Origin: a virus
IMG/VR virus record: IMGVR_UViG_3300012953_000014
Location: 92,636 to 156,635 of that record
Length of the DNA: 64,000 bases
Strand: one strand, 5' to 3'
Under the pieces are notes generated by a model. The model saw only the letters and a program-made list of their open reading frames with translations, was not told the origin of the DNA and made no database searches. Positions 35,345-52,285 of the stretch are shown here, in pieces. Positions within the stretch are counted from its first letter, which is position 1; each line of letters opens with the position of its first letter. Position numbers and translations under genes: made by a program.

Positions 35345-36280
35345 TTAAAAATGCAAGATTCCCTGGGCTTCTACTAGTTTTTTTGCGACATACCACATAT
35401 ACGTTCGGAAAACTCCTTCCTTAAAAGGGGTAAATTTAAAATCACCAATAAGGTTTTTTAGTTGTGTATTATCCCCATCTTTTCTAAACTGCCCATCTAG
35501 TTGTTTGTTGTAAACTATTTTAATTTCCTTATTGATGCTTTTCAATAAAGTTTGTGCCATCTGATCAATAGTAAGGTTCTCATCTGGACTTACGATTAAA
35601 GGAGTGTCTGTGTTGTGTTTCTCTAATAATACAGGTATCAGACCACACAAGTCTTCTATAAACAACTGTTGGCGCATTGGTTTGCCTGTGCCCCAAAGCT
35701 CAAGTTTTGTTCTACTTCTTGACGTTTTTACGATAAGAGATGGAACAAAATGACAAGTTTCAATATTAAAATCGTCGCCTGGCCCGTATATGTTCGACGG
35801 GCAAAAACATGAATAATTTACCCCATATTGTTTTCTGTAAGATTTAATCTGGACATGTAACATTCTTTTAGTATATCCATAAGAAAAGTTTGTCGGAGCA
35901 GGAGGACCAGAGAGCATGTCATTTTCTGTAAATGGATAGTCATCAACCACATCAGGAAAAGCGCAAGTGCTAAGTGATGCCAAGAGTCTAGGCACACCGG
36001 CCATGTATGCTTCGTGAACAACATTCGTGTTCATCATTACGTTTTTATAAAAAAAGTCTGCTTGATGTTTGGCATTTTTTTTGATACCACCAACTATACC
36101 AGCAAGATGAAGAACAGCATCCAGGTTCGGATAATCCTCAAACATTTTTTTAACTTGAGATGTATCAGTCAAGTCATAATCTTTTGATGAAATGTAAAAC
36201 CAATCTGGCTTGACCTTTTGCAGTTGCTTACCAACAAAACCGGAGCCACCGGTAACTAAAACTCTATCACCTTTTTCCAT
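35345..36280 (-). CDS. fcl: GDP-L-fucose synthase family epimerase/reductase
   Basis: VTGGSGFVG, HLAGIVGGI..N, LSTCAFP, YGYTKR, NIYGPGDDF, HFVPSLI, WGTGKPMRQ; next to gmd. Confidence 0.88.
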   Translation of the reverse strand: MEKGDRVLVTGGSGFVGKQLQKVKPDWFYISSKDYDLTDTSQVKKMFEDYPNLDAVLHLAGIVGGIKKNAKHQADFFYKNVMMNTNVVHEAYMAGVPRLLASLSTCAFPDVVDDYPFTENDMLSGPPAPTNFSYGYTKRMLHVQIKSYRKQYGVNYSCFCPSNIYGPGDDFNIETCHFVPSLIVKTSRSRTKLELWGTGKPMRQQLFIEDLCGLIPVLLEKHNTDTPLIVSPDENLTIDQMAQTLLKSINKEIKIVYNKQLDGQFRKDGDNTQLKNLIGDFKFTPFKEGVFRTYMWYVAKKLVEAQGILHF

Positions 36281-37067
36281 TTAATATCTCCTCTAATGAA
36301 ACATATTCTATTATTTCGTGAAGATTGGAGTTTGGACTTGAGGAAAGAATCTCAAAATGAATACCACTATTGTTTTTATACCTATTAATATCTTTAAGAA
36401 ACTTAGTCCACAACCAAAGGCCGCCATCATCTTCAGAGGGACCCTGGTCAACACCTTCTTCAAAAAAGTAAGGATTGAAATAGTCTGGATGGAAATGTTC
36501 TAAATCTTTTCCCTGTTCAATTGACTCTTCTCTGCGCCCGTAACGACAATCCACGCCAAGCAAAACTGCTCTCTTGTATCCCAACATATAAGAAAGGTTT
36601 GTGGCAAAAATTCCACAGTTTGCATATGCATGAGGGCTAATATATGGCTTTTGCCTTTCTAGTGGTGCAGAGTGAAGTTCTGTTATCTTATCTATACCAA
36701 TCTTTTTACATATGCTGGCCCCATAAAAAACATTAGTGCCTTCGGGTATATTAACCACCTTACTGTGTTGGCTGGCCGCGCTTTTCGAGGCAAGTTGGCT
36801 AATGAAGAATTTCTCTATTTTACATTCAGGGTTTGTAATGTATTTTTTTAATATATCTTTTTTGAATATTTTGTCTATAAGTCTACTGTCTATTAAACAA
36901 TAATATTTGGGCTCGAAGCCCCAATCTTCGAAAGCTATGTATTGGCGATTCATTCCGAAAGTTTCTAAGTTTTTTAGAAGAGAAATATCTATCTCATTTA
37001 ATGATGGGCCTGATCCTATAATAAAAGCTGTTTCATCTAGCGTTATATTTTTATTCTCGTTTCCCAC
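36267..37067 (-). CDS. DUF115/Maf/CstII(GT42)-like transferase
   Basis: AFIIGSGPSL...TFGMNR and LGYKRAVLLGVD...HFHPDYF. Confidence 0.7.
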   Translation of the reverse strand: MGNENKNITLDETAFIIGSGPSLNEIDISLLKNLETFGMNRQYIAFEDWGFEPKYYCLIDSRLIDKIFKKDILKKYITNPECKIEKFFISQLASKSAASQHSKVVNIPEGTNVFYGASICKKIGIDKITELHSAPLERQKPYISPHAYANCGIFATNLSYMLGYKRAVLLGVDCRYGRREESIEQGKDLEHFHPDYFNPYFFEEGVDQGPSEDDGGLWLWTKFLKDINRYKNNSGIHFEILSSSPNSNLHEIIEYVSLEEILNGKR

Positions 37068-37899
37068 TTATAAAATCCTCGAAATCAATATATTTAAAAT
37101 ATTTATTCAAATTTGAACCCTCTGAACATGAATAAACTTTCATGGGTAATTTATAATCATTGATTTCCGTAGCAGCACAATCCCATATATAAACTTGTTG
37201 TTGTTCATTCGGCCTGCCAAAAGTCTGTCCTTTGCCGAAATAGTCATCCCTAAAATGATTCGGATCATAATCTTCATGCGAAACACATCCATCATCTGTC
37301 CACTCAATACTTCTTTGTGTGTCTTTGTCAATGGTATATCTAGCATCGCATCCCAGAAGGGCTACCTCCTCATAACCCATCATATAAAGCATTTTCAAAC
37401 CCATGAATCCTGCATTTGGTTGTATAGGTGAAACAAGCAGGTTTGTGTTTGGAATCTCTAAGTTATGAGATATTGGCAAAAGAATACTCCAGGCTTCGGG
37501 AGGATCAACTAAAAACTGGACATTATCTGATTCTATGAACTTTTCACCCGGAAAATCTGAACTGGTTTGGATTGAATGAGGTAAAAAGAATCTTTCTATG
37601 TTACTGTTTTCAATAAGGTTGTTGATATCTTTATGGGTAGATTTTATATCTTCAGAATCAATTGATAAATAATATGAGGGCTCAAACCCCCAATCTTCAA
37701 AAGCGACATAAGCCCTATTAAAAGTAATTGTTCTCTTATCTTTGAGTTTTGATATGTCTATTTTTTTTAAGCTCGGGCCAGTCCCAATCAAATATGCCGT
37801 TTTATGTTTTAAGTTTTTTTTGGGATATGGAACACTAAAATATCCCTTACCGATACCAACCTTAAAACTATGTAAGTCTTTGCCCTTAAAGTGTGGCAT
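37051..37899 (-). CDS. DUF115/Maf/CstII(GT42)-like transferase (tandem paralog)
   Basis: AYLIGTGPSL...ITFNR and MGYEEVALLGCD...NHFRDDYF; shares AFEDWGFEPxYY with its neighbour. Confidence 0.7.
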   Translation of the reverse strand: MPHFKGKDLHSFKVGIGKGYFSVPYPKKNLKHKTAYLIGTGPSLKKIDISKLKDKRTITFNRAYVAFEDWGFEPSYYLSIDSEDIKSTHKDINNLIENSNIERFFLPHSIQTSSDFPGEKFIESDNVQFLVDPPEAWSILLPISHNLEIPNTNLLVSPIQPNAGFMGLKMLYMMGYEEVALLGCDARYTIDKDTQRSIEWTDDGCVSHEDYDPNHFRDDYFGKGQTFGRPNEQQQVYIWDCAATEINDYKLPMKVYSCSEGSNLNKYFKYIDFEDFISGKRE

Positions 37900-38495
37900 T
37901 ACTTATCTGCTTTTCTCAGAGGTGAATCTGCCATCCTTTCTTTTTCTTGATTAATTGATGGACAACGGCTTCCGACTCGATGAATAAGATCATAGAACAA
38001 CATCATTGAAGCAACTTCAACAGTGTGAAAGTAATCACATTCAAAAGACAACTCATTCATACCCTCATTTAGAGCTTGTGATTTTTGCCCACTAATCAAA
38101 AACGTTCCAAAACCCTGTTCTTCGCCCCAATGTAAGGCATTTACAACATTCGCAGAGTTTCCAGAGCATGAAAGCCCGATGACCAAACACTCAGAAGGAT
38201 CTTCAACTAAGCCAATTGTTTCAAGCCATCTTGTAAACATATGCTCAAAACCATGATCATTTGCATTTGAGGTGATAAAGCCAACACTATCAAACGAGTA
38301 AACTGACTTCTCCTGTATTAATCTTGAAAGATCTGTTGCCATATGACTTGCAACATAGTGTAGGCCACCATTTCCGATTAAAAACACACGCTTAGCATCA
38401 GCAAGCATATCTACAAGTTTTGCGTGTTCAGGTTTAGATACTGCTTCTTCACATTTTTCTTCGATATTCTCGAAATCGATTAACATTTTACTCAT
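37899..38495 (-). CDS. SIS-domain sugar-phosphate isomerase, GmhA-like
   Basis: FLIGNGG...ASHMATDL, ITSNANDHGFEHMF, GLSCSGNSANVVNAL. Confidence 0.8.
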   Translation of the reverse strand: MSKMLIDFENIEEKCEEAVSKPEHAKLVDMLADAKRVFLIGNGGLHYVASHMATDLSRLIQEKSVYSFDSVGFITSNANDHGFEHMFTRWLETIGLVEDPSECLVIGLSCSGNSANVVNALHWGEEQGFGTFLISGQKSQALNEGMNELSFECDYFHTVEVASMMLFYDLIHRVGSRCPSINQEKERMADSPLRKADK

Positions 38496-38507
38496 TTTTT
38501 TACCTCT

Positions 38508-39668
38508 TTATATTGAAAAAATTATTTTCAATGATTTCTCCAGTTCCTCTTTTGATAGTGCTAAACTTGGGCGGAACCTAATAGTTTTGTCTCCCGTCTT
38601 ATTAAATAGCATCCCTCTGTCAAACATCTTGTCTGAATATTCATTACAGGTTTCAGCGGTTTCAAAATCAAATGCCATAATTAAACCACAGTTTCTAACA
38701 TTTTTTAAATCTTTAACGCTTCTTAATCCATCAGCCAACAAATCTCCAGATTGTTTTGCATTGTTTAGAATATCATATTCTTTGTATGCCTTGATAATAT
38801 ACTTACAACGTATCATATCAATTATGGTTCCATCCCAAGTAACTTCCAACCTAGTTGGCGTTTCAAATATTTTAGAAAACCTTTCTTTAACCATGATTCC
38901 TGATAGTTGTGCTCGTTTACCAAAAATTAAAATGTCAGGCTCTACTCCCAAGTGTTCAAAATACCACACTTTTCCTGTTGCACCAAAACCTATTTGCACT
39001 TCATCAAATATCAAAGGAATATCATATTTATCACATAAATCTCTTAACGTTTTTATAAATTCTATTGAGATATAATGATCACCCAGGGTAGCCTGGATAG
39101 GCTCTACTAAGACAGCAGTAATGTTATCATTAGCAAAAATGTTTTCAAGGAAATCTTTTGAAACATCATCTCGCGTTTTGATAGAAAAGTGTGAAGGGAA
39201 ACCTTTTAACCTATGTTGCACAGGGCCATTTCGAGAAGTTGTAAAACAACCCCATGAATTTATACCATGGAAGGCACCAACAAATGAAAGTATTTTTGGC
39301 TCTTTTGATTTTTTATAATCTATGGCAGTTTTAATCGCTGCTTCTACTGCTAAAGCTCCAGTGCAACAATAATGAATATATTCATACTTTCCAATACCGG
39401 CGAAAGCCTTAAACTCTTTATCGAAAGATTCCGCTTCATCTGAAATGAACTCACAGTTTGTAATCTTTGCTGATAAGATTTTTGCAACTTCACTTTGAAA
39501 CTCATCGGTTTTAAATATTTCGTGGTTATACCCAAGAGGTAATGAAGAATACATGCTAAAGAAGTCTAAATATTCTTTACCAGTGTTTTTATCAGCAAGG
39601 TATGAGCCATGGCTATTTTCTAAATCTGCTCTTATTTTAAACTTACTGCTTCTTGCTACGTTTATCAT
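38508..39668 (-). CDS. Class III PLP-dependent aminotransferase (lysine-6-aminotransferase-like)
   Basis: YLDFFSMYSSLPLGYNH, TGALAVEAAIK, AFHG, VEPIQ, LIFDEVQIGFG, FGK, IRFRP. Confidence 0.9.
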   Translation of the reverse strand: MINVARSSKFKIRADLENSHGSYLADKNTGKEYLDFFSMYSSLPLGYNHEIFKTDEFQSEVAKILSAKITNCEFISDEAESFDKEFKAFAGIGKYEYIHYCCTGALAVEAAIKTAIDYKKSKEPKILSFVGAFHGINSWGCFTTSRNGPVQHRLKGFPSHFSIKTRDDVSKDFLENIFANDNITAVLVEPIQATLGDHYISIEFIKTLRDLCDKYDIPLIFDEVQIGFGATGKVWYFEHLGVEPDILIFGKRAQLSGIMVKERFSKIFETPTRLEVTWDGTIIDMIRCKYIIKAYKEYDILNNAKQSGDLLADGLRSVKDLKNVRNCGLIMAFDFETAETCNEYSDKMFDRGMLFNKTGDKTIRFRPSLALSKEELEKSLKIIFSI

Positions 39669-40728
39669 ATTTATTGCTCTCCATAAAGTATTCTATAACC
39701 AAATATTTAATATGATCTTTGTCATTTAAAATTTTGACTTCTGCATCCCCAACATCATTTAACAAAATACAAGTTATTGAATTACCAATGTTTTTCTTAT
39801 CTTTTGATAATATTTTAAAATACTCTTCAACCTCGGCAATGTTCATAGTGTAGGAAGGGATATTCTTCTTTATTGTTTCATGTATTTTATCATGTAACTC
39901 CCACTTTATAAAGCCTAAACTTGCTGATATATAGTTTGCAATATCCATCCCTAAAGTTACTGCTCGGCCATGGGATATCTCATAGTTTGTCAGAGCTTCG
40001 ATTGCATGACCAAAAGTATGGCCATAGTTGAAGATTCTTCGCTCATCCTCATCAAACTCGTCTCTCTCTATCATTCTTTTTTTAATATTTAAACTTTCAC
40101 AAATATGGGGATTTATCAGTGTATAATCATTCAATATGTCCTCATATGAGTCCATCAATTTGTGAATACTTGGAGTTCCATCAACCAAGTAATAATGTAA
40201 TATTTCACCAATGCCAGATCTAATATCATCTTGTTTGAGGGTTTTTAACAACTCGGCGCAACAATATATTTGACTTGGTGGATAAAAGGTTCCTAATAGG
40301 TTTTTGGCTCCGGCAAAGTTAATCGAAGATTTACTGCCTATACAGCTATCAGCCTGTGCCAACAAGGTTGTCGGAAAAAATTTCCATTGAATGCCACGAT
40401 ACAAAACAGACGAGGTGAAGGCGGTTATGTCTTGAACTATCCCACCACCTACGGCCACAATTGTGTTGTTTTTTCTTATACCTTTTTGAATAAGTTCTTT
40501 TAAAATATCTTGGCAATACTCTAATGTTTTATTTTCTTCAGTGGCCTCAATAACAAATATTTTATCACTATCAAAACTATCACTAAAAACAGGGTATTCT
40601 CTGTTGACATTCGAATCAATAAATAAAAATGATTTTTCTGATACTGAGTCGACCAGAGTGTTGGTCAGTTTTTCAAAAGAAACGTCATAATCTCGCCTGT
40701 AAGATTTTACGGTAAAGTTCTCAAACAT
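39643..40728 (-). CDS. Sugar-phosphate cyclase, 3-dehydroquinate synthase (AroB) superfamily
   Basis: GGGIVQD, PTTLLAQADSCIGSK, KNLLGTFYPP, FNYGHTFGHAIE, HGRAV, DKK. Start refined from 40743. Confidence 0.9.
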   Translation of the reverse strand: MFENFTVKSYRRDYDVSFEKLTNTLVDSVSEKSFLFIDSNVNREYPVFSDSFDSDKIFVIEATEENKTLEYCQDILKELIQKGIRKNNTIVAVGGGIVQDITAFTSSVLYRGIQWKFFPTTLLAQADSCIGSKSSINFAGAKNLLGTFYPPSQIYCCAELLKTLKQDDIRSGIGEILHYYLVDGTPSIHKLMDSYEDILNDYTLINPHICESLNIKKRMIERDEFDEDERRIFNYGHTFGHAIEALTNYEISHGRAVTLGMDIANYISASLGFIKWELHDKIHETIKKNIPSYTMNIAEVEEYFKILSKDKKNIGNSITCILLNDVGDAEVKILNDKDHIKYLVIEYFMESNKYDKRSKKQ

Positions 40729-41428
40729 TGGTAAACCCACCATCCACTACGATATTTTGACCTGAAATATATGTATTCATCTTGCTTGCAATGAACAGCA
40801 CAGCTTTTGATATTTCAGAGGGTTCAGCTAACCTTTTCATTGGAACTTGTTGTGACAACTCATTCATCCCTTCTTCACCTAAAATTTGTTTGGTTAAATC
40901 GGTTAAAGTAAATCCTGGAGAGATTGCGTTTACTAAAACATTATATTGTGCAAGCTCTGCGGCAGAAGATAGGGTTAGCCCGAGTAGCCCGGATTTGGTA
41001 GATGAATACGCTACTCTCTTTTCTTTACCGCGTAGACCCCATATAGAGGAGATATTAACTATTTTTCCATAGTTTTGTTTGATCATGTTTTTAGAAACAG
41101 TTTTTAAAACTTTATAAGGCGCTGTCAAATTTACTTTTAAGATCTTTTCCCAATCTTTATCTTGAGAATCGCAGACATAATCAATTTTATTTATGCCCGC
41201 GTTATTGATTAATACATCAATCTTCTTATCTTTTATAAACTCTATAAAATCTTGAGTTGAATCTTCGTCCGAGAAATCAACACAAAAATATCCGTCACCA
41301 GTTCTTGGCTTGGTTCCTGTAAGTATCAGGTTTGCGCCTGCAATGCGCATGTCTTCGGCTACTTGCTTTCCTATGCCACGGGTAGCGCCAGTAATCAGAA
41401 CTGTTTGATCTTTATAGTCTATTATCAT
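40721..41428 (-). CDS. Short-chain dehydrogenase/reductase
   Basis: TGATRGIG, NNAG, NISS, YSSTK, VNAISPG, VDGG. Confidence 0.93.
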   Translation of the reverse strand: MIIDYKDQTVLITGATRGIGKQVAEDMRIAGANLILTGTKPRTGDGYFCVDFSDEDSTQDFIEFIKDKKIDVLINNAGINKIDYVCDSQDKDWEKILKVNLTAPYKVLKTVSKNMIKQNYGKIVNISSIWGLRGKEKRVAYSSTKSGLLGLTLSSAAELAQYNVLVNAISPGFTLTDLTKQILGEEGMNELSQQVPMKRLAEPSEISKAVLFIASKMNTYISGQNIVVDGGFTNV

Positions 41429-42549
41429 TTCGGGTAAATATGTTCAACATCGGCTCGACTGACTGCTAAACGAATTGCTGGCTTATCACCAACTGCTTTG
41501 ATCTTGTGTACTTTGCCTTTAGGGATAAAAACAATATCATCTTTACCAACAATAAGTTTTCTCCCCTCTATATCCCATTCCCATTGGCCATCAACAATGT
41601 ACCACCACTCATTCCAATCTGGGTGATAATGATTTCTATTCCCTTCGCCTGGCTGTTGGTGAATAAGGGTTGCACTATTATTTTCGGTATCTACTAATCT
41701 CTTGCTCCAAGACACAGTACTATCAAATCTGCTCCTAACCTCATTGATGTTTACAGGTACTTCACTGTTGGCCGAGTGTAGATCATTGTTCAATACACCA
41801 TCTTTTTTCAAGATACTGGGAACATCTACTTCAACGTGCTCCTTGTCATCAGCGTATCTAACAATATATTCTTCTTTGCTTGATAAGAATCTTGCAACAA
41901 GTTCTGCAAACTGAAAGTCTTCCTCATTGTCAATATCAATCGTAGAGTTTCCTTTGATCGTAAAGAAGCCAATATTACCATCTCCACCATGATAACCACA
42001 TTTATATTTGTTCATATTTTTAACATAGTTATCTTTTTTCCACGCCATCAAGCCGCAAGCATACGCTTTAACTGGATTTACCAATTGTGATGGTGGGGAT
42101 ACTTTTTTCTGGTCAAAGTTTATCGGAGCATTATTGTATACACACTCAATCTTTTCATTCTTAACCGATACAAGTGTGTCTAACTTTTTAGATAGCATTT
42201 CACCAGTAAAATCTTTTATTTCTTTCGGAGTCATAAATGGTGATGTTGCAAGAACTTGCACTATTACATCACATTCAACATTGTCTAAGAAGTCCATGAC
42301 AAAGTCATCATTAGTTGCAGAATCAGTAGATAACTCAGGTGGTCTTTTATAGAACTTTGCACCTTCTGACACTGCAATGTTCCCAATAACATCAGACTCT
42401 GTGTTTACCCACACCTCATCGAAACATCCTGCATTGATTGCTGCCCGAATAGTATAACTTATAAGGGGAACACCATTCAACAATCTTATGTTTTTTTTAT
42501 GGATTCTTTTGCTGCCTAAACGAGCTGGAATCATTGCTACGGTTTTCAT
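41425..42549 (-). CDS. Acylneuraminate cytidylyltransferase-family protein fused to a C-terminal cupin
   Basis: IPARLGSKRIHKKNIR, TSPF, IDIDNEEDF; cupin HYHPDWNEWWYIVDG...IPKGKVH. Confidence 0.88.
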   Translation of the reverse strand: MKTVAMIPARLGSKRIHKKNIRLLNGVPLISYTIRAAINAGCFDEVWVNTESDVIGNIAVSEGAKFYKRPPELSTDSATNDDFVMDFLDNVECDVIVQVLATSPFMTPKEIKDFTGEMLSKKLDTLVSVKNEKIECVYNNAPINFDQKKVSPPSQLVNPVKAYACGLMAWKKDNYVKNMNKYKCGYHGGDGNIGFFTIKGNSTIDIDNEEDFQFAELVARFLSSKEEYIVRYADDKEHVEVDVPSILKKDGVLNNDLHSANSEVPVNINEVRSRFDSTVSWSKRLVDTENNSATLIHQQPGEGNRNHYHPDWNEWWYIVDGQWEWDIEGRKLIVGKDDIVFIPKGKVHKIKAVGDKPAIRLAVSRADVEHIYPK

Positions 42550-42552
42550 ATT

Positions 42553-43407
42553 TTACCTCAAAGAATATGCATTAGTCAAGTAATCATCAACTGTAATTTT
42601 AGATGGATAATATTTTTGTAACATTTTATAAAAATATTTGATTTGTGGAAGTTGAGCGTGAAGGTCATCACGCGCTTCACGTCCATCTATAAGTCGGTCA
42701 GAGTTCCAGGCCCCATATAAGTCTCCAGTGACAGACTTAACAGAATCATAATACTCATCGAAATAAACGTTTCCCCATTTGCCCATATCAAAAAATGTCA
42801 TTCCAGTAACATACACTTCTTTAATATCATAGTTCATGAGTGTAACGAGACCTGAGAATCCTGTGTTGCAAGTTGTGCCAACTTCCTTAAACATTTTAAA
42901 CAAATACCCATCACACACGTTGTGCCACGGGACGCTTGTGCTATCAAACCAATCTTCTTGTTTTTTAATGTCCCACATTGAAAGCATAGGGCAAATCATA
43001 TATTTTAGTGTTTTAATGTAATCAATATTATTATCACACTCTACACGATTGAAGTCATTAAAACTACCAAATATCACATCGGTCTTTGATCCATAGTCAG
43101 CCCATTTTTCTTTTGGTATAGCAAATTTTTGATTCAATCGAATAACAATATCATAAGAGTCAATAAACACACCGTTGCCCAAACCAGATAAATGTGGAGA
43201 AGGTCCAACGATTGCTACCCTTTTCCCTTCAACTAGGTTGGCGAAATCAGGATCCTTCTTATAATCACGAAAACCATCAACAAACCCCATGTTTGAAAGT
43301 TGTTGAAGTTGTTGTTCAGGTGTTGGTGAGCTGCAATCCCAGCTGGGTGTGGTTTCCTCAATAGGAATACCGATTATATCACTTTTTAAATCTTTGTACC
43401 AGTTCAT
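42553..43407 (-). CDS. GT29 (sialyltransferase)-like protein
   Basis: L-sialylmotif-like RVAIVGPS..L.....G..IDSYDIVIRLN...DYGSKTD; S-motif-like NTGFSGL...VTGMTFF. Confidence 0.75.
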   Translation of the reverse strand: MNWYKDLKSDIIGIPIEETTPSWDCSSPTPEQQLQQLSNMGFVDGFRDYKKDPDFANLVEGKRVAIVGPSPHLSGLGNGVFIDSYDIVIRLNQKFAIPKEKWADYGSKTDVIFGSFNDFNRVECDNNIDYIKTLKYMICPMLSMWDIKKQEDWFDSTSVPWHNVCDGYLFKMFKEVGTTCNTGFSGLVTLMNYDIKEVYVTGMTFFDMGKWGNVYFDEYYDSVKSVTGDLYGAWNSDRLIDGREARDDLHAQLPQIKYFYKMLQKYYPSKITVDDYLTNAYSLR

Positions 43408-43411
43408 TTCA

Positions 43412-44362
43412 CTACCATATAAACTTATTCTTATAATATTTGACTATTTTTGAAATCTCTTCATTAAATTTTTTCTTAGGTTTCCACCCCAAAGCTCTAA
43501 GTTTTGAGTCGTCAAGGGCATATCTGACATCCTGGCCTTCTCTGGAGTATGAAAAATCGATATAATCACTTACATCCACCGAAACCCCATGAAAACATTT
43601 AATAATCTTACTTACTGTGTCAATGTTTTTCTGCTCGAAGCCTCCTGCAATATTGTATATCTCATTTCTTGTCCCGCTTTCAACAATAGTTAGAACCGCT
43701 TCAGCAGTGTCATCTGCATGAAGCCAGTTTCGAGTAGGTGTTCCACTATTATGAAGGCGGATTTTTTTATTCCTAACAAGGTTTTTGATAGAAAGAGGGA
43801 TGAGTTTTTCTGGGTATTGTCCGATACCATAGTTGTTGGTCGGTCGCAAAATAATATAGTCTAAACCATATGTACGAGCCCATGCATTTATGAGCATATC
43901 TCCAGCAGCTTTAGCAGCAGAATAAGGGTTACTTGGCTTTAAGAGATCATTCTCGGTGTGAGAGCCATTATTAATATCTCCATACACCTCATCGGTGCTT
44001 ATATGAAGAAATATAGGGAGTTCATTGCAGTTTGACTGCTTAAACCTTATTAAATCTAATAAATTTTTAACGCCCACAATATTACTATCGATAAACTCAT
44101 CGCTCTTAACAATACTGTTTCCAACATGGGATTCAGCTGCAAAGTTTATAACATAATCACAATCATACAGCCGATCCACATCTTTTATATCAACATTTTG
44201 GAACTTAAAGTTGGGGTGTTGGTTAAACTCTTCCAGCAAAGAAGTGTTGGCAGCATATGTCATCTTATCGACGCCATAAACCATCCAACCTTTCTTTAGA
44301 CATTTGCGGGTTAAATATGATGCCATAAAACCCAAACATCCTGTTATATAAACAACTTTCAT
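43412..44362 (-). CDS. rfbB: dTDP-glucose 4,6-dehydratase family
   Basis: DKMTYAAN, NFAAESHV, HISTDEVYG, PSNPYSAAKA, NNYG..QYPEKLIP, REGQDVRY. Confidence 0.88.
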   Translation of the reverse strand: MKVVYITGCLGFMASYLTRKCLKKGWMVYGVDKMTYAANTSLLEEFNQHPNFKFQNVDIKDVDRLYDCDYVINFAAESHVGNSIVKSDEFIDSNIVGVKNLLDLIRFKQSNCNELPIFLHISTDEVYGDINNGSHTENDLLKPSNPYSAAKAAGDMLINAWARTYGLDYIILRPTNNYGIGQYPEKLIPLSIKNLVRNKKIRLHNSGTPTRNWLHADDTAEAVLTIVESGTRNEIYNIAGGFEQKNIDTVSKIIKCFHGVSVDVSDYIDFSYSREGQDVRYALDDSKLRALGWKPKKKFNEEISKIVKYYKNKFIW

Positions 44363-45723
44363 TATACGTTTGCAAAAAAGCTATCAACAGCTTCTTTAAT
44401 GTATTTAATCTTTTTATCCGTCAGGCCAATAAATGTTCCCAAGAAAAATGAGTTAGTTGTAACCAATTGGGCAACTGGGAATACTTGATTCAAATCTCCA
44501 TATTCATCAGCCATGTGGTAATATCCCGGATGGGTCAAAATATTTCCAGCAAAATAAGAGCGAGTTTGAATTTTAGCATCTTCCAAGTGATTTACAATAT
44601 CTTGTTTGGAGAATGGCGCATCTTCCTTAACTGTCATCAGATATGCAAACCAACAAGGATCTGATTTATCAGTGGCAACAGGTAGGTGGAGATATTCTTC
44701 ATACGGTTTAAAGATATCACTCAACTTTTTAAAGTTTTCTCTTCTGGCTGCATCCATTTCTGGAAGCTTATCCAGTTGTTGAAGCCCCATTGACGCCTGT
44801 AGATCTAATGGTTTAAGATTATAACCAATCTCATCAAACACATATCGATGATCATATACTGCTTCTTTCAAGCCCGGTAGCCAGTTTTTAAACCTATTCC
44901 CACATGCAGTGCCCTCTGTAACGTTTCCTGGTTTCATTGAGTTGCAGTAACACGCACGACCCCAATCACGGATACTAGAAATAACTTGACGGATTTTGTT
45001 ACTATTCATTGCAATAAATCCACCTTCACCCATTGTCATGTGATGTGCGGGAAAGAAAGAACAAGTTGAAATATCTCCATATGAGCCTAATTTTTTACCA
45101 TCATAGAACGAACCAAGTGCATCACACGAGTCTTCCAGGAAAATGAGGTTATACTTATTGATAAGCTCCATCAATCTATCCATATTTGGAGGATTACCCA
45201 AAACATGTGCGAAAGTAATAACTCTGATTTCGGGATCGTTTTTTAACTTTTCTTCAACCAAATCCAAATCTAAATTCAAGTCTGGTAATGTAACATCTAC
45301 AAACACTGGTTTGAAGCCAACTTGAATGATTGGGTTAATGGTGGTTGGGAAACCTACGACAGGTGTAAGAACCTTGGTACCTTCTGGTAGATTAAAGAGT
45401 TTCTTGGATTTAAGCGCCGACATCATAAGAAGATTTGCGGAACTTCCAGAGTTGGTTAAACAACCAAACTTCATTCCAAGATGTTCAGGGAAAGCAAGCT
45501 CAAAGTTTCTTGCATTTTTTCCGAAGATTAACCACTCACCCAATAAGGTGTTAATGGCCTCCCTATATTCGTTTTTATCATAATGTGGGCCAGAATATGC
45601 AATCCAGTCTTGCCCTGGAGTCCAGGTTTCATTTTCTCTTTTGTCGTCGATATATTCTTCTACAAGTTGTAGTATTTTCTCTAGTTTAGAATCTTTTTTA
45701 TTTAACTGTATCAATTGATTCAA
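44362..45723 (-). CDS. rfbH: NDP-4-keto-6-deoxyglucose 3-dehydrase (RfbH/DdhC, E1)
   Basis: NSGSSANLL, FPTTINP, AHVLGNP, EDSCDALGS, SFFPAHHMTMGEGG (His in place of the PLP Lys), RDWGRACYC Fe-S motif, YDHRY...GYNLK. Confidence 0.92.
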   Translation of the reverse strand: MNQLIQLNKKDSKLEKILQLVEEYIDDKRENETWTPGQDWIAYSGPHYDKNEYREAINTLLGEWLIFGKNARNFELAFPEHLGMKFGCLTNSGSSANLLMMSALKSKKLFNLPEGTKVLTPVVGFPTTINPIIQVGFKPVFVDVTLPDLNLDLDLVEEKLKNDPEIRVITFAHVLGNPPNMDRLMELINKYNLIFLEDSCDALGSFYDGKKLGSYGDISTCSFFPAHHMTMGEGGFIAMNSNKIRQVISSIRDWGRACYCNSMKPGNVTEGTACGNRFKNWLPGLKEAVYDHRYVFDEIGYNLKPLDLQASMGLQQLDKLPEMDAARRENFKKLSDIFKPYEEYLHLPVATDKSDPCWFAYLMTVKEDAPFSKQDIVNHLEDAKIQTRSYFAGNILTHPGYYHMADEYGDLNQVFPVAQLVTTNSFFLGTFIGLTDKKIKYIKEAVDSFFANV

Positions 45724-46546
45724 TCATCCTTTGCAAGCCAATGTTAAAACCATCAAGTTCAATGTTTAATTTTTTTAGTTTCTTAGCACAACCTGTATAT
45801 TCCGGTGCCATGCCTTGTTGCTTTATTATAACATTGTTCTCAACATTCATTAAATTACAAATCTGATTAGCGACATCAATTAATGTATTTTTTTCTTCAT
45901 AACAAAGATTAATATCAGATGGTAATATAATCTTTTTGTGATTCTTGATATAATAATCAATAACCCTACAGGTATCCTCTGCTGAAATGAAGTCCATTCT
46001 TTTGTTTTGGTGTATCTCTAGTGGTTTTCCTTTGTTTACATTGTTGATAGAGTTTTTGATAAGTCGTTGGGTCGTTTCGTGTTTTCCAAAACACCCAAAG
46101 AGTCTCATGTTAACAATGTTATCATCCATTTCTTGGATCTGTCTTGCTATAATATTTTTTGCAGCACCATAAAAATCGGTGGGGACATAATCTCCACGAT
46201 GAATACCGTCTGTCTCAATAACTCCGTTTGTTCGGTCGAACTCGGCTCCTGAACCGAAGTTAATCAGTAGACTATATTTATGACGATTGTTGAAAAGGTT
46301 GCTGAACATATTAATATTGTTGATATAATCTTCTGTTGTATCCTTTGTTATTCTTGTTCCGCCCTTAATAGCAGTGTGAATAACAACATCGACATCTATG
46401 TTTTCAAAATAATCATCAACATTTTCGGGATTAGATACATCCAATGTTTGGCGACTGGTTGGAATAATATCGTGTTCTTTATCCGAAAAGAAGTCTTGGA
46501 TCTCTCTAGCTAAAAAACTATTTTTACCTGTAATGAGAACTCTCAT
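45698..46546 (-). CDS. NAD-dependent epimerase/reductase
   Basis: Rossmann start, FGSGAEFD, YGAAK, RLFGCFG. Confidence 0.85.
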   Translation of the reverse strand: MRVLITGKNSFLAREIQDFFSDKEHDIIPTSRQTLDVSNPENVDDYFENIDVDVVIHTAIKGGTRITKDTTEDYINNINMFSNLFNNRHKYSLLINFGSGAEFDRTNGVIETDGIHRGDYVPTDFYGAAKNIIARQIQEMDDNIVNMRLFGCFGKHETTQRLIKNSINNVNKGKPLEIHQNKRMDFISAEDTCRVIDYYIKNHKKIILPSDINLCYEEKNTLIDVANQICNLMNVENNVIIKQQGMAPEYTGCAKKLKKLNIELDGFNIGLQRMIESIDTVK

Positions 46547-47694
46547 ATTGAAAATTCCTTTTCAAAAAAATCACCCGCACCACATTGTTCTGAAAAGAAC
46601 TTTCTTGTATCATCATTAAAGTATTCAAGATTCCATTTGTTCACTGTATCAACAAACTCATTGTCATCTAAGATACTTAAACCCTCACAATAATGCCAAA
46701 CTTTTATTTGTTTATCTATAAAATCACTTTTACAAAACAACTTATCATCTTTAACATAAAAGTTTTTGGTTGATTCTGTCCAAAATTGATCTCTGTTTTT
46801 TGTGTCGGCTGGGTGTAATCCATCTATCTTGCACTTTGATCTCACGTTATAAGACACAGAACTAAAAGCGTAAGGTGCTTCAGGGAAGACAGCTTTATAC
46901 CTTCTTTCTTCAACACTATCTTTTAGTATTTTAATGATACTTGCTTGATTTTCAGGCTCAACATCTATAAACCTCTGGCCCCAAACAAATAGATTTAATA
47001 ACCCTTGTTCGCCATAATAACTAATATAAGTTCTTGCCTTGCTGTCGTCAGATTCTCTTATATTCTTGTAAAAAATAAACATATCTTTTAATGGGGCGAT
47101 ATTGTTAAAACATATAACATCAGCATTTAGATACATATGATCACAAGGTATACATCCTAAATCTTTTTTTATTTTAGCCCAATATACATCTAACTCTTGT
47201 TTGGATTTGATTGCGGTGTTTGACCATTCTATTCCAATAGCATTGGTTTCAGCATTCCAAAGAACTAAGGGAGAAAATATAGAATATTTATGTTTTGGAA
47301 ATTTATATTCCCCCTTATAATCTTTTGGCGGGTTCCATTCGTCGGAAATACCATCTAAATAATTAAACTGTATTTTATAATCAAGTGTGCAGATAATATC
47401 ATCTGTGTTGTTGTCCAAAAACTCATCTAATCTTGCGCAAGTAATCGTATCAGAACCCAAACATATCATTTTATCATAAGATTTTGTCGTCATTATCTCA
47501 AGGGCATAACAATATTTAGCCATTCCATACCCAACGTCTTTGATGAGATTGAAAGATTCATAATCACTAGCATTGTCATCTGTTATGAAATAAAGATCAA
47601 CATTGGGGTGAAATTTCTTAAAACTGCTTACTGCTGGTTGGGCGAGTTTCTTGTATTTCTCACCAATAGCAAGTATTAAACAAGCTGTTTTCAC
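46543..47694 (-). CDS. Putative GT-A fold glycosyltransferase
   Basis: LAIGEKY..LA...V.SFKKFHP..DLYFITD, LGSD, LNADV, EQGLLN, WHY; located in the glycan island. Confidence 0.55.
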   Translation of the reverse strand: MKTACLILAIGEKYKKLAQPAVSSFKKFHPNVDLYFITDDNASDYESFNLIKDVGYGMAKYCYALEIMTTKSYDKMICLGSDTITCARLDEFLDNNTDDIICTLDYKIQFNYLDGISDEWNPPKDYKGEYKFPKHKYSIFSPLVLWNAETNAIGIEWSNTAIKSKQELDVYWAKIKKDLGCIPCDHMYLNADVICFNNIAPLKDMFIFYKNIRESDDSKARTYISYYGEQGLLNLFVWGQRFIDVEPENQASIIKILKDSVEERRYKAVFPEAPYAFSSVSYNVRSKCKIDGLHPADTKNRDQFWTESTKNFYVKDDKLFCKSDFIDKQIKVWHYCEGLSILDDNEFVDTVNKWNLEYFNDDTRKFFSEQCGAGDFFEKEFSI

Positions 47695-48176
47695 TAGTAT
47701 TTCCTTTTGAGGTTTATATAGTGAGGCTCATTAGAGGATATCAAGTTTTTAAAATCTTCTTCTAGTTCTTCTTGGTTTTCGGGGTGGTGTACATGGACAT
47801 TTTTAAAACATCCCATAATCTCTTTATCATCTTCAGCCCAATGTGAAAATCCCAAATATCCGTAATCCCTATCCCTGCCTCCGCCGACCAACTTAACTGG
47901 AATATTTTCATGATCCAAATAGTTCCTGATTAACTCAAATGGTCTATAAAGAAGAAAAGACGTAATAGAATATACAACCGGAATCTTTCCTTCCATCGCC
48001 ATACCTACCGCAACGCCCATCATCAATTGTTCTGCCGAACCAACATTGTGAAACCTAGTCGGAAAATCTCTCCTAATATCATCCCACAATCCATAACCAA
48101 GATCGCCAGTGACCAAGACAATGTCTTGATTATTTAACATCTCATTGTATAAGAGTTTAGCAAAGGACTTTCTCAT
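47694..48176 (-). CDS. Transketolase-like pyrimidine-binding subunit (split enzyme)
   Basis: TGDLGYG, NVGSAEQLMMGVAVGMA, YSITSFL..RPFELIR, GFSHWA. Confidence 0.88.
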   Translation of the reverse strand: MRKSFAKLLYNEMLNNQDIVLVTGDLGYGLWDDIRRDFPTRFHNVGSAEQLMMGVAVGMAMEGKIPVVYSITSFLLYRPFELIRNYLDHENIPVKLVGGGRDRDYGYLGFSHWAEDDKEIMGCFKNVHVHHPENQEELEEDFKNLISSNEPHYINLKRKY

Positions 48177-48813
48177 CGAAATCTCTCCCTCTTTTAATCA
48201 TTGATTTTGCTAGCTGATAATCTTCATCTGACATAACGTGATAGTGAGCGTTCAATCCTCGCAAGAATGGAAACTGCTCAACAGAAGTATATCTTATATT
48301 GATTCTTGGATAAAATGTTAGCAATCTTCTGGTAAGATACTCCATATCCACTTTATCGTATGCACAATATCCGTTAACATTGACATACACTTTAATGTTA
48401 TCTATTTTGTTTTCTTGAATAAAGCGCAAACCTTCCCAAATAGAGCCTTCGGCGCACTCTCCATCGCTAATAAGACAGTGTACAGTCCTGTCTTTGTTTG
48501 CCATTGCTCGACCAATAGCTACAAGTAGACCCAGCCCTAGACTTCCTGTGGAACAATATAGCTTATCTTGCTCATCTCGATATGGATGCCCACCATGTTT
48601 CATAAAAAGCTTTTCTGCGTCGATACCATGATATTTTTCAATTGCTGCATAAAGTGCTACTGCTGCATGTCCAGCGGATAAAATAAAGATATCGTCCTCA
48701 CCTTTCTCTTGAAAGATTTCGTCAATAATATCAACACTTGAAAAGTAACTGCCCAAGTGTGAAAGTTTGTGTATATATGCGATTTCCAATATACGTTCTT
48801 TTAAAGATTCCAT
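48157..48813 (-). CDS. Transketolase-like ThDP-binding subunit (split enzyme)
   Basis: SHLGS, FILSAGHA, STGSLGLG, SDGECAEGSIWE...N, HY. Confidence 0.88.
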   Translation of the reverse strand: MESLKERILEIAYIHKLSHLGSYFSSVDIIDEIFQEKGEDDIFILSAGHAAVALYAAIEKYHGIDAEKLFMKHGGHPYRDEQDKLYCSTGSLGLGLLVAIGRAMANKDRTVHCLISDGECAEGSIWEGLRFIQENKIDNIKVYVNVNGYCAYDKVDMEYLTRRLLTFYPRINIRYTSVEQFPFLRGLNAHYHVMSDEDYQLAKSMIKRGRDFDEKVLC

Positions 48814-49535
48814 TTTTCTTTCCAAAAGGTTTGAATCATTTGATCATAACCCTTTCCTTCATGTTGAACTTTCCATGTTGCTTGCTGGGGATGCCATCTA
48901 TAATAAAATCCCAACCAACGTGGAGCTGGGTATATCATAACATTATTATCGGCAAGTTTGCAATACAAATCATAATCTGCTGCTCCACCATAAAGTTCAG
49001 GTTGTGCTTTTAACAAACCCTCATTCAATAACTTGACATTGTAGATTACTGTGGGCGTGTTTACTGGACATCTAACCAAGCATTGTTTTTTAAAGTCTTC
49101 CAAAGATGGGTAGAAGTGAGATAGTTGGTCCATTGTTTGCCCAGTATGCGATCTTACACCCCAAACAGGACTTTGGAAGGCCAATACTTGGTCGGGTGCA
49201 GACAGTATAAAATTCATGCAGTTTTCAATATAATTTTCACTCATATAATCATCTGAACCGATGATTGTTACATAGTCTCCTGTGATGTGTTTGAAACCTT
49301 CTTCCCTAGCTTCATCCCAACAATGAGGATAAATATTTGGTGCAGTGGAAGTGATTAGTTGGGGATGTTTTTGTTGTATCTCTTTTACAATATTAAACGT
49401 ATTATCTGTACTCTCATTATCAACACAGACAACCTCAATATTTTCATAAGTTTGTTTTAATGCAGATAATACACATTCTTCAATCCATTGTTGCGAGTTA
49501 TAACATGGAATTACTATACTTACTTTTGGCTTCAT
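48801..49535 (-). CDS. Glycosyltransferase family 2
   Basis: VSIVIPCYN, SALKQTYENIEVVCVDNESTD, GSDD, ADYDL, YYRWH. Confidence 0.92.
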   Translation of the reverse strand: MKPKVSIVIPCYNSQQWIEECVLSALKQTYENIEVVCVDNESTDNTFNIVKEIQQKHPQLITSTAPNIYPHCWDEAREEGFKHITGDYVTIIGSDDYMSENYIENCMNFILSAPDQVLAFQSPVWGVRSHTGQTMDQLSHFYPSLEDFKKQCLVRCPVNTPTVIYNVKLLNEGLLKAQPELYGGAADYDLYCKLADNNVMIYPAPRWLGFYYRWHPQQATWKVQHEGKGYDQMIQTFWKEKWNL

Positions 49536-51433: not shown

Positions 51434-52285
51434 TTATTCTTCCTCAAAAAAGCTCAATACTAAATCAGGAATTTCATCTCTTTTTTGTCTCATTTTATCA
51501 ACAAGATTTTTTCCCTTAAGATTAAACCATTCTTCGCCTGCTGCGCCGATTAAATCATTGGTTATAATTTTACAACCCAACATTCGTGCCTCAACAATGA
51601 TTCTTGATAAGGTTTCAGGAGTTTTAGGAAAAAAAACAAGCGACTCATTTTGACTTAGTCTTTTAATGAATTTCTTATAATCACTTGGAGCAATAAGATC
51701 ATATTCCATGTTTTTTAGAATACAATATTTGACAGCACCGGAGGTGTTCTTATGATCTATATTAGATTCCATTATCGAACATTCAGGTTTTTTTTCGCCC
51801 TGACTTAACTCTTCAATAAAATCCAATACATCGGTAGACCACAAATTCCCAGAAAGACTGTGAATATTGTTGAGCTTTAGGTTTTTTTCAACAATATCTT
51901 TATGCATTGATGACTGACATAAAACGGCAAGTGCAGAAGCATAAAAATCATGATATACAAGTTGATCAGCAGGAGCTTGAAAATCTTCATATAATGCAGG
52001 GTTTCTGGTTTTCAGATATTTGTGATCGTGCTCATAAATAACATATCTAGTTAAGTTTCTTATTGCAGAAATAACATCTGGTTTTATGTTTAAAAAGTTT
52101 GCTATAATAAAGCAATACTCTTGTTTGTTTTCTTCTATGATGTCTCTTGTGAGTTCATGTGAATGCACACGACGGACAACGTGCCCTCGTTTATGTAAAA
52201 TCTCGCAAAATATGTGATTATTTAATTCTCCACCACCGAGGATACCGTCCTCAACAAAGACATCTGCAACAAATAAAACTTTCAT
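51434..52285 (-). CDS. GT-B fold glycosyltransferase
   Basis: GGGELN, EHDH, FFPKTPETLSRIIVEARMLGCKIITN. Confidence 0.78.
   Translation of the reverse strand: MKVLFVADVFVEDGILGGGELNNHIFCEILHKRGHVVRRVHSHELTRDIIEENKQEYCFIIANFLNIKPDVISAIRNLTRYVIYEHDHKYLKTRNPALYEDFQAPADQLVYHDFYASALAVLCQSSMHKDIVEKNLKLNNIHSLSGNLWSTDVLDFIEELSQGEKKPECSIMESNIDHKNTSGAVKYCILKNMEYDLIAPSDYKKFIKRLSQNESLVFFPKTPETLSRIIVEARMLGCKIITNDLIGAAGEEWFNLKGKNLVDKMRQKRDEIPDLVLSFFEEE

Follow-up and report, generated by a model that had tools for sequence, protein, structure and literature searches.

How does a phage come to carry a homolog of dehydroquinate synthase (DHQS) among genes for sialyltransferase-like enzymes, and what sugar would such a set of genes make? 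The question is raised by an operon in the terminal 64 kb (here called the window) of the IMG/VR virus record IMGVR_UViG_3300012953_000014, which comes from an uncultured aquatic T4-like phage, is 156,635 bp long, and has a completeness of 71% as estimated by CheckV. Eight open reading frames (ORFs) lie on the minus strand within positions 36267-43407 of the window. Neighbors either overlap by 1 to 26 nt or sit 3 to 12 nt apart, which indicates a single operon; the AroB-like gene overlaps both the gene for a short-chain dehydrogenase/reductase (SDR), with which it shares 23 nt, and the aminotransferase gene. The initial annotation had described this module from the sequence, and all of its ORFs and domain calls were confirmed. 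In order of transcription, the genes are as follows:

42553-43407, minus strand: sialyltransferase-fold (GT29/GT42-like) glycosyltransferase, 284 aa (PF00777 Glyco_transf_29 and predicted fold)
41425-42549, minus strand: NeuA-type (CMP-ulosonic-acid-synthetase-type) cytidylyltransferase-cupin fusion, 374 aa (PF02348 CTP_transf_3 and PF07883 Cupin_2)
40721-41428, minus strand: classical FabG-like SDR, 235 aa (adh_short/adh_short_C2, E 4e-49)
39643-40743, minus strand: AroB paralog of the TIGR04425 clade (DHQS-like, putative NAD+/metal phospho-lyase), 366 aa (DHQ_synthase N and C domains)
38508-39668, minus strand: class III (omega-type) pyridoxal-phosphate aminotransferase, 386 aa (PF00202 Aminotran_3, E 6e-65, 220 bits)
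37899-38495, minus strand: GmhA-like single-domain SIS protein, 198 aa (weak SIS_2 match; gmhA model TIGR00441 below cut-off)
37051-37899, minus strand: Maf/MptE-like putative CMP-sugar transferase 1, 282 aa (PF01973, 39.1 bits, above the cut-off of 34.6)
36267-37067, minus strand: Maf/MptE-like paralog 2, 266 aa (PF01973, 27 bits, below the cut-off of 34.6)

We tentatively read the operon, giving this reading a little less than even weight, as the phage form of a widespread pathway by which a CMP-activated, sialic-acid-like seven-carbon 2-keto-acid sugar is built and attached. The AroB-like enzyme most likely removes the terminal phosphate of that sugar by NAD-dependent elimination, before CMP activation. 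The window cassette would represent a reduced, aminotransferase-bearing phage form of a CMP-ulosonate-type pathway with a DHQS-like phosphate-eliminating step. The NeuB, KdsA/DAHP synthase (DAHP, the 7-phosphate of 3-deoxy-D-arabino-heptulosonate), and HpcH aldolase families have no member in the whole record, which extends to its full length the earlier remark that the window lacks a NeuB/KdsA-type synthase.

The AroB paralog and its partner enzymes

The AroB-like protein scores 428.1 bits against TIGR04425 (cut-off, 400), with residues 12 to 353 aligned to model positions 1 to 345 of 348. This model is a hypothetical equivalog for an AroB-related putative sugar phosphate phospholyase, and its NCBIfam label, "phospholyase (cyclizing)," was given by homology only. 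Against the aroB equivalog TIGR01357, the protein reaches 269.5 bits (E 4e-80), below the cut-off of 305. In a phmmer comparison with PDB sequences, scores were 100 to 167 bits for DHQS, 103 bits for DOIS, the synthase for 2-deoxy-scyllo-inosose, 81 bits for desmethyl-4-deoxygadusol synthase (DDGS), and 77 bits for ValA of the EEVS class (2-epi-5-epi-valiolone synthases). The analogy that the initial annotation had drawn with the EEVS and DOIS cyclases of aminocyclitol biosynthesis loses ground here, since the highest score belongs to DHQS and the residues that bind the carboxylate and phosphate of DAHP are kept.

For the residue comparison, 100 AroB-like relatives from phage and bacterial loci and six canonical AroB proteins were put into one alignment. 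The equivalents of R130, D146, K152, N162, E194, K250, R264, N268, H271, H275, H287, and K356 (Aspergillus nidulans numbering) are invariant in 100 of 100 relatives, the window protein included. We take these residues to be the binders of the metal and of the phosphate and carboxylate of DAHP; their roles in DHQS were reportedly set out by Carpenter et al. in 1998. Their invariance suggests that the substrate is a DAHP-like 2-keto-acid 7-phosphate rather than plain sedoheptulose 7-phosphate or glucose 6-phosphate. Other positions have changed: the NAD loop GGGxxGD reads GGGxxQD in all 100 relatives, DSS has become DSC in 99 of them, and the Glu that follows the third metal His is lost in the clade. 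The equivalent of DHQS Lys197 (His183 in the window protein) reads His in the sub-clade that goes with SDR and cytidylyltransferase genes and Lys elsewhere. Of the 39 viral loci that have a cytidylyltransferase, 32 show His, as do 18 of 19 copies in bacterial cassettes. Of the 35 viral loci that have none, 32 show Lys, as do all 5 NeuB-linked loci. The cytidylyltransferase-bearing loci with Lys instead of His include L074, L077, L098, and L109, which lack the SDR. This dimorphism likely marks two functional sub-types.

In a FastTree phylogeny, the 100 AroB-like sequences form a clade that is split from canonical AroB with a support of 100. Glaciecola and Verrucomicrobiota genomes (G001 and G002) carry a true aroB in addition to the cassette paralog; the housekeeping genes score 394 and 382 bits against the aroB model, above its cut-off, and the cassette paralogs 243 and 259 bits. 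Because the clade is separate and cassette-bearing bacteria keep their own aroB, the gene is judged from these comparisons to encode a sister of true DHQS rather than the shikimate enzyme itself. The gene always lies inside glycan loci, usually coupled to an SDR gene, and no other shikimate gene is found near it, as had been noticed before.

The likeness to AroB (EC 4.2.3.4, TIGR01357; PDB 3CLH, 1XAG, and 1DQS) extends to the two-domain fold family (PF01761 plus PF24621) and to the invariant metal- and DAHP-binding residues, so that the first steps, NAD+ oxidation at C5 and beta-elimination of phosphate, are probably shared. The differences are the score below the aroB cut-off, the separate and well-supported clade, the coexistence with true aroB, and the fixed changes from G to Q, from DSS to DSC, and, in the sub-clade, from K197 to H.

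Activation of the sugar would fall to the cytidylyltransferase-cupin fusion (model with a predicted local distance difference test [pLDDT] score of 92), in which residues 1 to 225 form the cytidylyltransferase domain and residues from about 285 to 374 a metal-binding cupin. The match to PF02348 has an E value of 2.5e-26 (93.2 bits; cut-off, 22.6) and that to PF07883 an E value of 3.6e-16. Narrower models score below their cut-offs, with 98 bits versus 205.7 for PseF (TIGR03584) and 21 to 55 bits versus 155 to 281 for the KdsB models. The predicted N-terminal domain appears closest to CMP-N-acetylneuraminic acid (Neu5Ac) synthetases (VIA Z scores of 26.4, 25.9, and 25.6; root mean square deviation of 1.9 to 2.6 Å), with Z scores of 22.6 for a CMP-pseudaminic acid (Pse) synthetase and 20 for KdsB. 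The first-ranked Foldseek match is a synthetase for CMP-2-keto-3-deoxynononic acid (Kdn). The characterized relatives activate 2-keto-acid sugars, namely, Neu5Ac, Kdn, Pse, and 3-deoxy-D-manno-octulosonic acid (Kdo). Whole-model fold searches were filled by the transferase domain, and the cupin was characterized by sequence alone. Its HxH...E...H motif (a His/His/Glu/His metal set) is invariant, and the closest solved sequences are the Mn bicupins Sll1358 and oxalate decarboxylase (E 5e-13); an oxalate-type metal cupin would suit an alpha-keto-acid ligand.

The GT29-like protein matches PF00777 with 26.8 bits (cut-off, 23) over 50 residues only. Its AlphaFold (AF2) model has a pLDDT of 93, and the top PDB matches in Foldseek are the sialyltransferases ST8SiaIII, ST6Gal1, ST3Gal1, ST6GalNAc2, and CstII (E 8e-6 to 1e-3), which bears out the GT29-like call of the initial annotation. 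The top 16 matches all belong to GT29, and CstII (GT42) has a template modeling (TM) score of 0.5; the TM scores are modest throughout, at 0.4 to 0.5. In a viral structure library, the model matches viral GT29 and MptE-like proteins. The protein library searched contains 1337 relatives; the Rossmann-type motif GxxVAxVGP...IDSYDxVxRxN is conserved and H250 is near-invariant. The two MptE-like proteins are paralogs of each other (34% identity, E 4e-37), the first with an N-terminal IGTGPSL motif. Genes of this type travel with the cassette in bacteria (L023 and L027) and in many phage loci; several phage loci that are syntenic in other respects (L001-L006) are without the pair. The domains, predicted folds, and synteny agree with CMP activation and sialyltransferase-type transfer, and this part of the pathway first proposed for the module is supported; the EEVS/DOIS aminocyclitol route appears not to fit.

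The remaining three proteins belong to families that could shape the sugar. In the SDR, the catalytic residues Ser128, Tyr141, and Lys145 are invariant in 32 orthologs, and its gene immediately precedes the AroB-like one in the bacterial loci and in most of the 87 viral ones. The nearest family of the aminotransferase is LAT/L-lysine 6-transaminase (TIGR03251), at 267.5 bits versus a cut-off of 520.8, and the closest structures are those of L-lysine epsilon-aminotransferases (E 6e-49). About 35 viral loci have the aminotransferase gene, as do the cellular loci L027 and L028; the cassettes L075, L076, L081, L082, and L073 are complete but for it, which makes it an add-on to the core. The SIS protein scores 60 bits against the gmhA model TIGR00441 (E 2e-16; equivalog cut-off, 209), and its best PDB matches are phosphoheptose isomerases (GmhA; E 4e-12). 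It keeps the phosphate loop SxSGNS and has Asp at the second Glu of Escherichia coli GmhA HFAEEL, and the C-terminal catalytic region falls outside the alignment; on these features the protein is GmhA-like, not assured GmhA. An analogy with Campylobacter PtmF as an SIS protein was dropped, as the Plesiomonas paper has PtmF as a 326-aa oxidoreductase.

The cassette in phages and bacteria

An alignment-based scan of IMG/VR, used instead of a single-protein scan that gave 2 loci only, detected an AroB-like relative in at least 145 viral contigs, 80 of which were examined for gene context. The window order, from the GT29-like gene through cytidylyltransferase, SDR, AroB-like, and class III aminotransferase to SIS genes, recurs in about 35 independent viral contigs, with AroB-like proteins at 43 to 59% identity and with variable Maf-like genes. 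This recurrence is far beyond chance. No NeuB, KdsA, or HpcH gene lies within 10 kb of the cassette in these approximately 35 syntenic loci. The initial annotation knew of no such pathway in a phage, which is true of the literature searched, although the cassette itself proves common in phage metagenomes. No match to the cassette was returned by megablast in a set of 50,697 phage records; tblastn matches in those records turned out to be true aroB genes in mislabeled bacterial contigs and were reused as AroB references.

Phage cassettes vary around a small core. The minimal forms (L075/L076, L081, and L082) consist only of SIS, SDR, AroB-like, and cytidylyltransferase genes and one transferase gene. 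Locus L073, a sister of the window clade, has a 2-hydroxyacid dehydrogenase and a Gfo/Idh/MocA oxidoreductase and no aminotransferase. In six loci (L074, L077, L085, L098, L101, and L109), no SDR homolog was found beside the AroB-like gene, and a DegT homology match, confirmed by Pfam for L074, lies between the cytidylyltransferase and AroB-like genes. The presence of DegT where the SDR is absent fits a keto-sugar product open to reduction or amination. Five of these loci (L074, L077, L098, L101, and L109) have SIS proteins 57 to 67% identical to that of the window, whereas their AroB-like proteins are only 38 to 46% identical. In other viral sub-clades, the SDR-AroB-like pair goes with NeuB or with epimerase and DegT genes only.

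Several variants carry additional enzymes. In L074 (positions 8229-13809) and L077, the order is cytidylyltransferase, DegT, AroB-like, SIS (65 to 67% identical to that of the window), a 233-aa protein, a second cytidylyltransferase, and a KdsA-like synthase (PF00793, 162 bits; 37% identical to Glaciecola KdsA). In L098 (10989-14037), a radical-SAM/SPASM protein is encoded between the AroB-like and SIS genes, and a shortened protein of the UDP-glucose/GDP-mannose dehydrogenase family downstream; the latter could convert a primary alcohol to a carboxylate and be an alternative source of the acid group. Loci L108, L122, L124, L126, and L134 form a viral sub-clade (support, 98) in which NeuB lies directly upstream of the SDR-AroB-like pair and no cytidylyltransferase is found within 10 kb. 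In L001-L004 and L059, a 572-aa B12-binding radical-SAM enzyme is encoded just upstream of the GT29-like gene (5355-7073 in L001); the window is without it.

In bacteria, AroB-like relatives of 39 to 47% identity are encoded in O-antigen- or capsule-type loci, where the SDR-AroB-like-cytidylyltransferase core is accompanied by SIS, Gfo/Idh/MocA, D-2-hydroxyacid dehydrogenase, DUF386/YhcH, MptE-like, and Wzx/Wzy/Wzz genes. Both the class III aminotransferase and a cupin-fused cytidylyltransferase are present in L027 and L028. The SIS, Gfo/Idh/MocA, and 2-hydroxyacid dehydrogenase genes that L027, L028, L023, and L010 add would be the exact set for converting sedoheptulose 7-phosphate to hept-2-ulosonate 7-phosphate, from ketose to aldose to aldonate to 2-keto-aldonate.

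A search of 401 Verrucomicrobiota genomes with the cassette cytidylyltransferase revealed sister cassettes (L049-L051) with SIS, cytidylyltransferase, 2-hydroxyacid dehydrogenase, Gfo/Idh/MocA (53 to 55% identical to that of L027), DUF386, and MptE-like genes. In these cassettes, a phosphatase of the inositol-monophosphatase family takes the place of the AroB-like and SDR genes, both of which are absent. This swap suggests that the AroB-like enzyme and the SDR fill the phosphate-removal slot ahead of CMP activation, and the plain phosphatase points to an ordinary free ulosonic acid as the product of the sister pathway.

Proposed pathway and competing explanations

We infer a route in which the AroB-like enzyme would bind a phosphorylated seven-carbon 2-keto acid, either DAHP from the host or a hept-2-ulosonate 7-phosphate derived from sedoheptulose 7-phosphate via the GmhA-like SIS isomerase, and would follow DHQS chemistry through oxidation at C5 by NAD+ to beta-elimination of the 7-phosphate. 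The SDR and, in the window variant, the class III aminotransferase would process the keto/enol intermediate to a 7-deoxy, aminated ulosonic acid that retains its ring oxygen. The NeuA-type cytidylyltransferase would then form the CMP-sugar, with the fused cupin possibly handling the alpha-keto-acid or anomeric form, and the GT29-like and the two Maf-like transferases would attach the sugar to cytoplasmic proteins or glycans of the phage or host; cytoplasmic acceptors are probable because no membrane segment was found in 22 proteins of the surrounding island. A dehydratase-like outcome, with a 7-deoxy keto intermediate that is reduced or aminated while the ring oxygen is kept, is favored at roughly even strength. 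Gfo/Idh/MocA and 2-hydroxyacid dehydrogenase families have no member anywhere in the record, so the phage would take a ready-made keto-acid phosphate from the host, for which DAHP is the obvious candidate, or use host dehydrogenases.

Several known systems offer parallels. Like the pathways for Kdo (KdsD-KdsA-KdsC-KdsB), sialic acid (NeuC/NeuB/NeuA), Pse, and legionaminic acid (Leg), the cassette would start with an SIS isomerase and lead through a phosphorylated 2-keto-acid sugar and the loss of its phosphate to activation with CMP by a PF02348 enzyme and attachment by GT29/GT42/Maf-type enzymes. Unlike them, it has no phosphoenolpyruvate (PEP)-condensing synthase; the keto acid of the cellular cassettes is seemingly formed oxidatively, through Gfo/Idh/MocA and 2-hydroxyacid dehydrogenase enzymes, a DHQS-like lyase and an SDR are proposed in place of a phosphatase, and the chain is probably seven carbons long. 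According to the SugarBase preprint, the CMP-activated form is the only one in which ulosonic acids have been observed. The logic may also resemble that of nucleoside diphosphate (NDP)-hexose 4,6-dehydratases with their 4-ketoreductases or 4-aminotransferases (RmlB/RmlD and PseB/PseC), where transient NAD+ oxidation and terminal beta-elimination are followed by reduction or transamination; SDR and DegT enzymes are likewise alternative neighbors of the AroB-like gene. In contrast to RmlB and PseB, the cassette enzyme has a DHQS fold rather than that of an extended SDR, phosphate rather than water would leave, and the substrate would be a free keto-acid sugar phosphate rather than an NDP-sugar.

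A number of points weigh against the CMP-ulosonate pathway. The window and minimal cassettes such as L075, L081, and L082 are without the Gfo/Idh/MocA and 2-hydroxyacid dehydrogenase genes that would account for the keto acid, and with host DAHP as the starting point there is nothing for the strongly conserved SIS protein to do. The SDR occurs here together with the aminotransferase, so that a picture in which the same ketone is either reduced or aminated is incomplete. We know of no seven-carbon CMP-ulosonate, and the literature search gave no characterized enzyme of the AroB-like clade. Finally, studies of DHQS indicate that ring opening and aldol cyclization are spontaneous once phosphate has been eliminated (PMC7144000), which makes a carbocycle the default unless the intermediate is diverted.

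We consider it unlikely that such a carbocycle is the product. In that case, the AroB-like enzyme would complete the DHQS reaction to a dehydroquinate-type ring, the aminotransferase and/or the SDR would convert the ring ketone to an amine or alcohol, CMP would be placed on the tertiary C1-OH, which beside the carboxylate mimics the anomeric center of an ulosonic acid, and the carba-sugar would be transferred. A version that starts from host DAHP, in which a dehydroquinate/quinate-type "carba-ulosonic acid" aminated at the ring ketone is CMP-activated and put on virion or host surface molecules by sialyltransferase-fold enzymes, is equally doubtful. The spontaneity of the final DHQS steps speaks for ring closure, as do the invariance of all DHQS catalytic and binding residues, the ketone that a dehydroquinate-type product would offer to the SDR, the class III aminotransferase, or DegT, an input (host DAHP) for which neither missing dehydrogenase is needed, and the word "cyclizing" in the homology-based NCBIfam name. 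However, the SIS protein would again be idle, the sister cassettes L049-L051 use homologous downstream enzymes with a plain phosphatase that would lead to an ordinary ulosonic acid, and the retention of a separate true AroB in bacteria, together with the fixed G-to-Q substitution in the NAD loop and the other changes, suggests an outcome other than dehydroquinate. Sialyltransferase-type transfer proceeds through an oxocarbenium-like transition state, for which the ring oxygen is needed, and a saturated tertiary carbon bearing a carboxylate would presumably be an extremely poor donor. The metal cupin fused to the cytidylyltransferase also speaks against the carbocycle, as an alpha-keto acid would be a suitable ligand for it. 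The carbocycle and the 7-deoxy-ulosonate are isomers and are not separable by mass. To our knowledge, the only precedent for carbasugar transfer is found in the C7N-aminocyclitol pathways (EEVS ValA, the class III aminotransferase ValM, NDP-valienol, and the pseudo-glycosyltransferase VldE), which resemble the cassette in joining a DHQS-superfamily enzyme to an aminotransferase, nucleotide activation, and transfer. They differ in that the cassette enzyme is DHQS-like rather than EEVS-like, activation is of the CMP/NeuA type rather than the GlgC-type NDP kind, the transferases have a sialyltransferase fold rather than a GT20-like one, and the allylic activation that valienol enjoys would be missing from a saturated carba-ulosonate.

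Closer adherence to those aminocyclitol pathways, with the AroB-like enzyme cyclizing sedoheptulose 7-phosphate or an isomer made by the SIS protein to a neutral C7 cyclitol in the manner of EEVS/ValA, and with an aminocyclitol that, as in the making of validamycin or acarbose, is activated with a nucleotide and then transferred, seems very improbable to us. Class III aminotransferases are found in C7N-aminocyclitol clusters, and in those minimal phage cassettes that were examined the GmhA-like SIS gene adjoins the one for the cyclase-family enzyme, but the enzyme is by score much nearer to DHQS (269 bits with the aroB hidden Markov model) than to ValA, DDGS, or DOIS, the Arg/Lys pair that binds the DAHP carboxylate is retained, and the activating enzyme is of the NeuA type, the characterized relatives of which use 2-keto acids. 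The sugar phosphate cyclases covered in a review from 2026 are confined to the classes DHQS, aminoDHQS, DOIS, EEVS, 2-epi-valiolone synthase (EVS), DDGS, and DEIS and include no CMP-linked or glycan-linked member (PMC12904256). There is somewhat more room, though still little, for the manufacture or modification of a known ulosonic acid of the Kdo, Kdn, Neu5Ac, Pse, or Leg type, with a PEP-condensing synthase supplied by the host or by the missing 29% of the genome, the SIS protein acting as an arabinose-5-phosphate-type isomerase, and the AroB-like enzyme tailoring the phosphorylated product. The incompleteness of the record would allow for this, and there are phage loci in which a closely similar SIS gene is joined by a second cytidylyltransferase and a KdsA-like gene (L074 and L077) or with NeuB directly upstream of the SDR-AroB-like pair (L108, L122, L124, L126, and L134). 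Against it stand the absence of NeuB, KdsA, and HpcH from 157 kb and from the surroundings of the syntenic viral loci, an SIS protein that matches GmhA models and not KdsD, a cytidylyltransferase far below the PseF and KdsB cut-offs, and an invariant spacing of DAHP-type carboxylate and phosphate binders that is unsuited to an 8- or 9-carbon phosphate. Kdo 8-phosphate as the substrate, an idea prompted by the KdsA-like genes of L074 and L077, was rated unlikely in view of these residues and of geometry, as DHQS-type elimination would be unfavorable on its pyranose form. The least credible explanation is that of a plain DHQS serving as an auxiliary metabolic gene that boosts host aromatic amino acids and lies among glycan genes by accident. 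The strong similarity to aroB (E 4e-80) and the complete set of catalytic residues would suit it; the score below the aroB cut-off and above that of TIGR04425, the separate clade, the overlaps with the SDR and aminotransferase genes, the dozens of phage and bacterial loci in which the gene is syntenic with those for the cytidylyltransferase, the SIS protein, and the transferases, and the lack of a nearby shikimate gene do not.

The literature search returned no mention of TIGR04425 and nothing relevant on a sugar phosphate cyclase with a cytidylyltransferase or on dehydroquinate synthase with nonulosonic acid and phage; the cassette is common in phages and bacteria and appears to be biochemically uncharacterized in the literature searched. 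If the CMP-ulosonate pathway is real, a shikimate enzyme would have been recruited for phosphate elimination on the way to sialic-acid-like sugars, with no need for a PEP-condensing synthase, which would be chemistry not seen before in the DHQS superfamily and would add a new class to the surface sugars. If the carbocycle were the product, it would be the first carbocyclic sugar mimic to serve as a glycan building block via CMP, and the sialyltransferase-like enzymes would have a new reaction class. Marine and aquatic phages carry the cassette in abundance (the IMG/VR contigs counted above), and it occurs in several bacterial phyla, so its product may be a common, unseen part of phage and bacterial surfaces, with relevance to adsorption, defense evasion, and recognition based on glycans. 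Being small and soluble, the enzymes are accessible in vitro.

The glycan island around the operon

The cassette is part of a sugar-gene block (34310-54941) of 22 genes, all on the minus strand. None of the 22 encoded proteins has a hydrophobic segment of the transmembrane type (maximum Kyte-Doolittle value over 19 residues [KD19], <1.4), and no gene for a Wzx flippase, a Wzy polymerase, or a lipid-carrier or initiating phosphotransferase is found among them. Together with the Maf-like enzymes, this suggests direct cytoplasmic glycosylation of soluble targets, e.g., virion proteins. Its MptE/Maf-like transferases are all soluble, and genes for a lipid carrier, flippase, or polymerase are lacking; in this, the island resembles the systems of the Maf flagellin nonulosonate transferases and of mycobacteriophage virion glycosylation. 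It differs from them in that its predicted sugar is not a known nonulosonate.

Upstream of the operon, a split transketolase-like pair (47694-48825, minus strand) consists of a 222-aa N-terminal thiamine pyrophosphate part and a 160-aa pyrimidine-binding part. It adjoins genes for a 4,6-dehydratase-like epimerase, a DegT aminotransferase, and an RmlD-like reductase (43412-46546), and the block is kept in the related phage loci L001-L007; it may constitute a two-carbon branched-chain or keto-sugar module. Two further proteins (46543-47694, 383 aa, and 51434-52285, 283 aa, both on the minus strand) have no Pfam or PHROG match, yet they are kept in related phage loci.

Elsewhere in the window, genes for PhoH and an M23 peptidase are found. 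A 232-aa protein (56021-56719, minus strand) matches the ATLF zinc-metalloprotease family with 24.4 bits, below the cut-off of 27.4, over about 40 C-terminal residues, which is probably a mere metalloprotease-like motif. Directly downstream of the glycan island, two giant ORFs of 3269 and 2533 aa (8838-18647 and 22489-30090, minus strand) flank a gene similar to that of the baseplate wedge protein gp6 (20274-22073, minus strand; phrog_6, E 1e-22).

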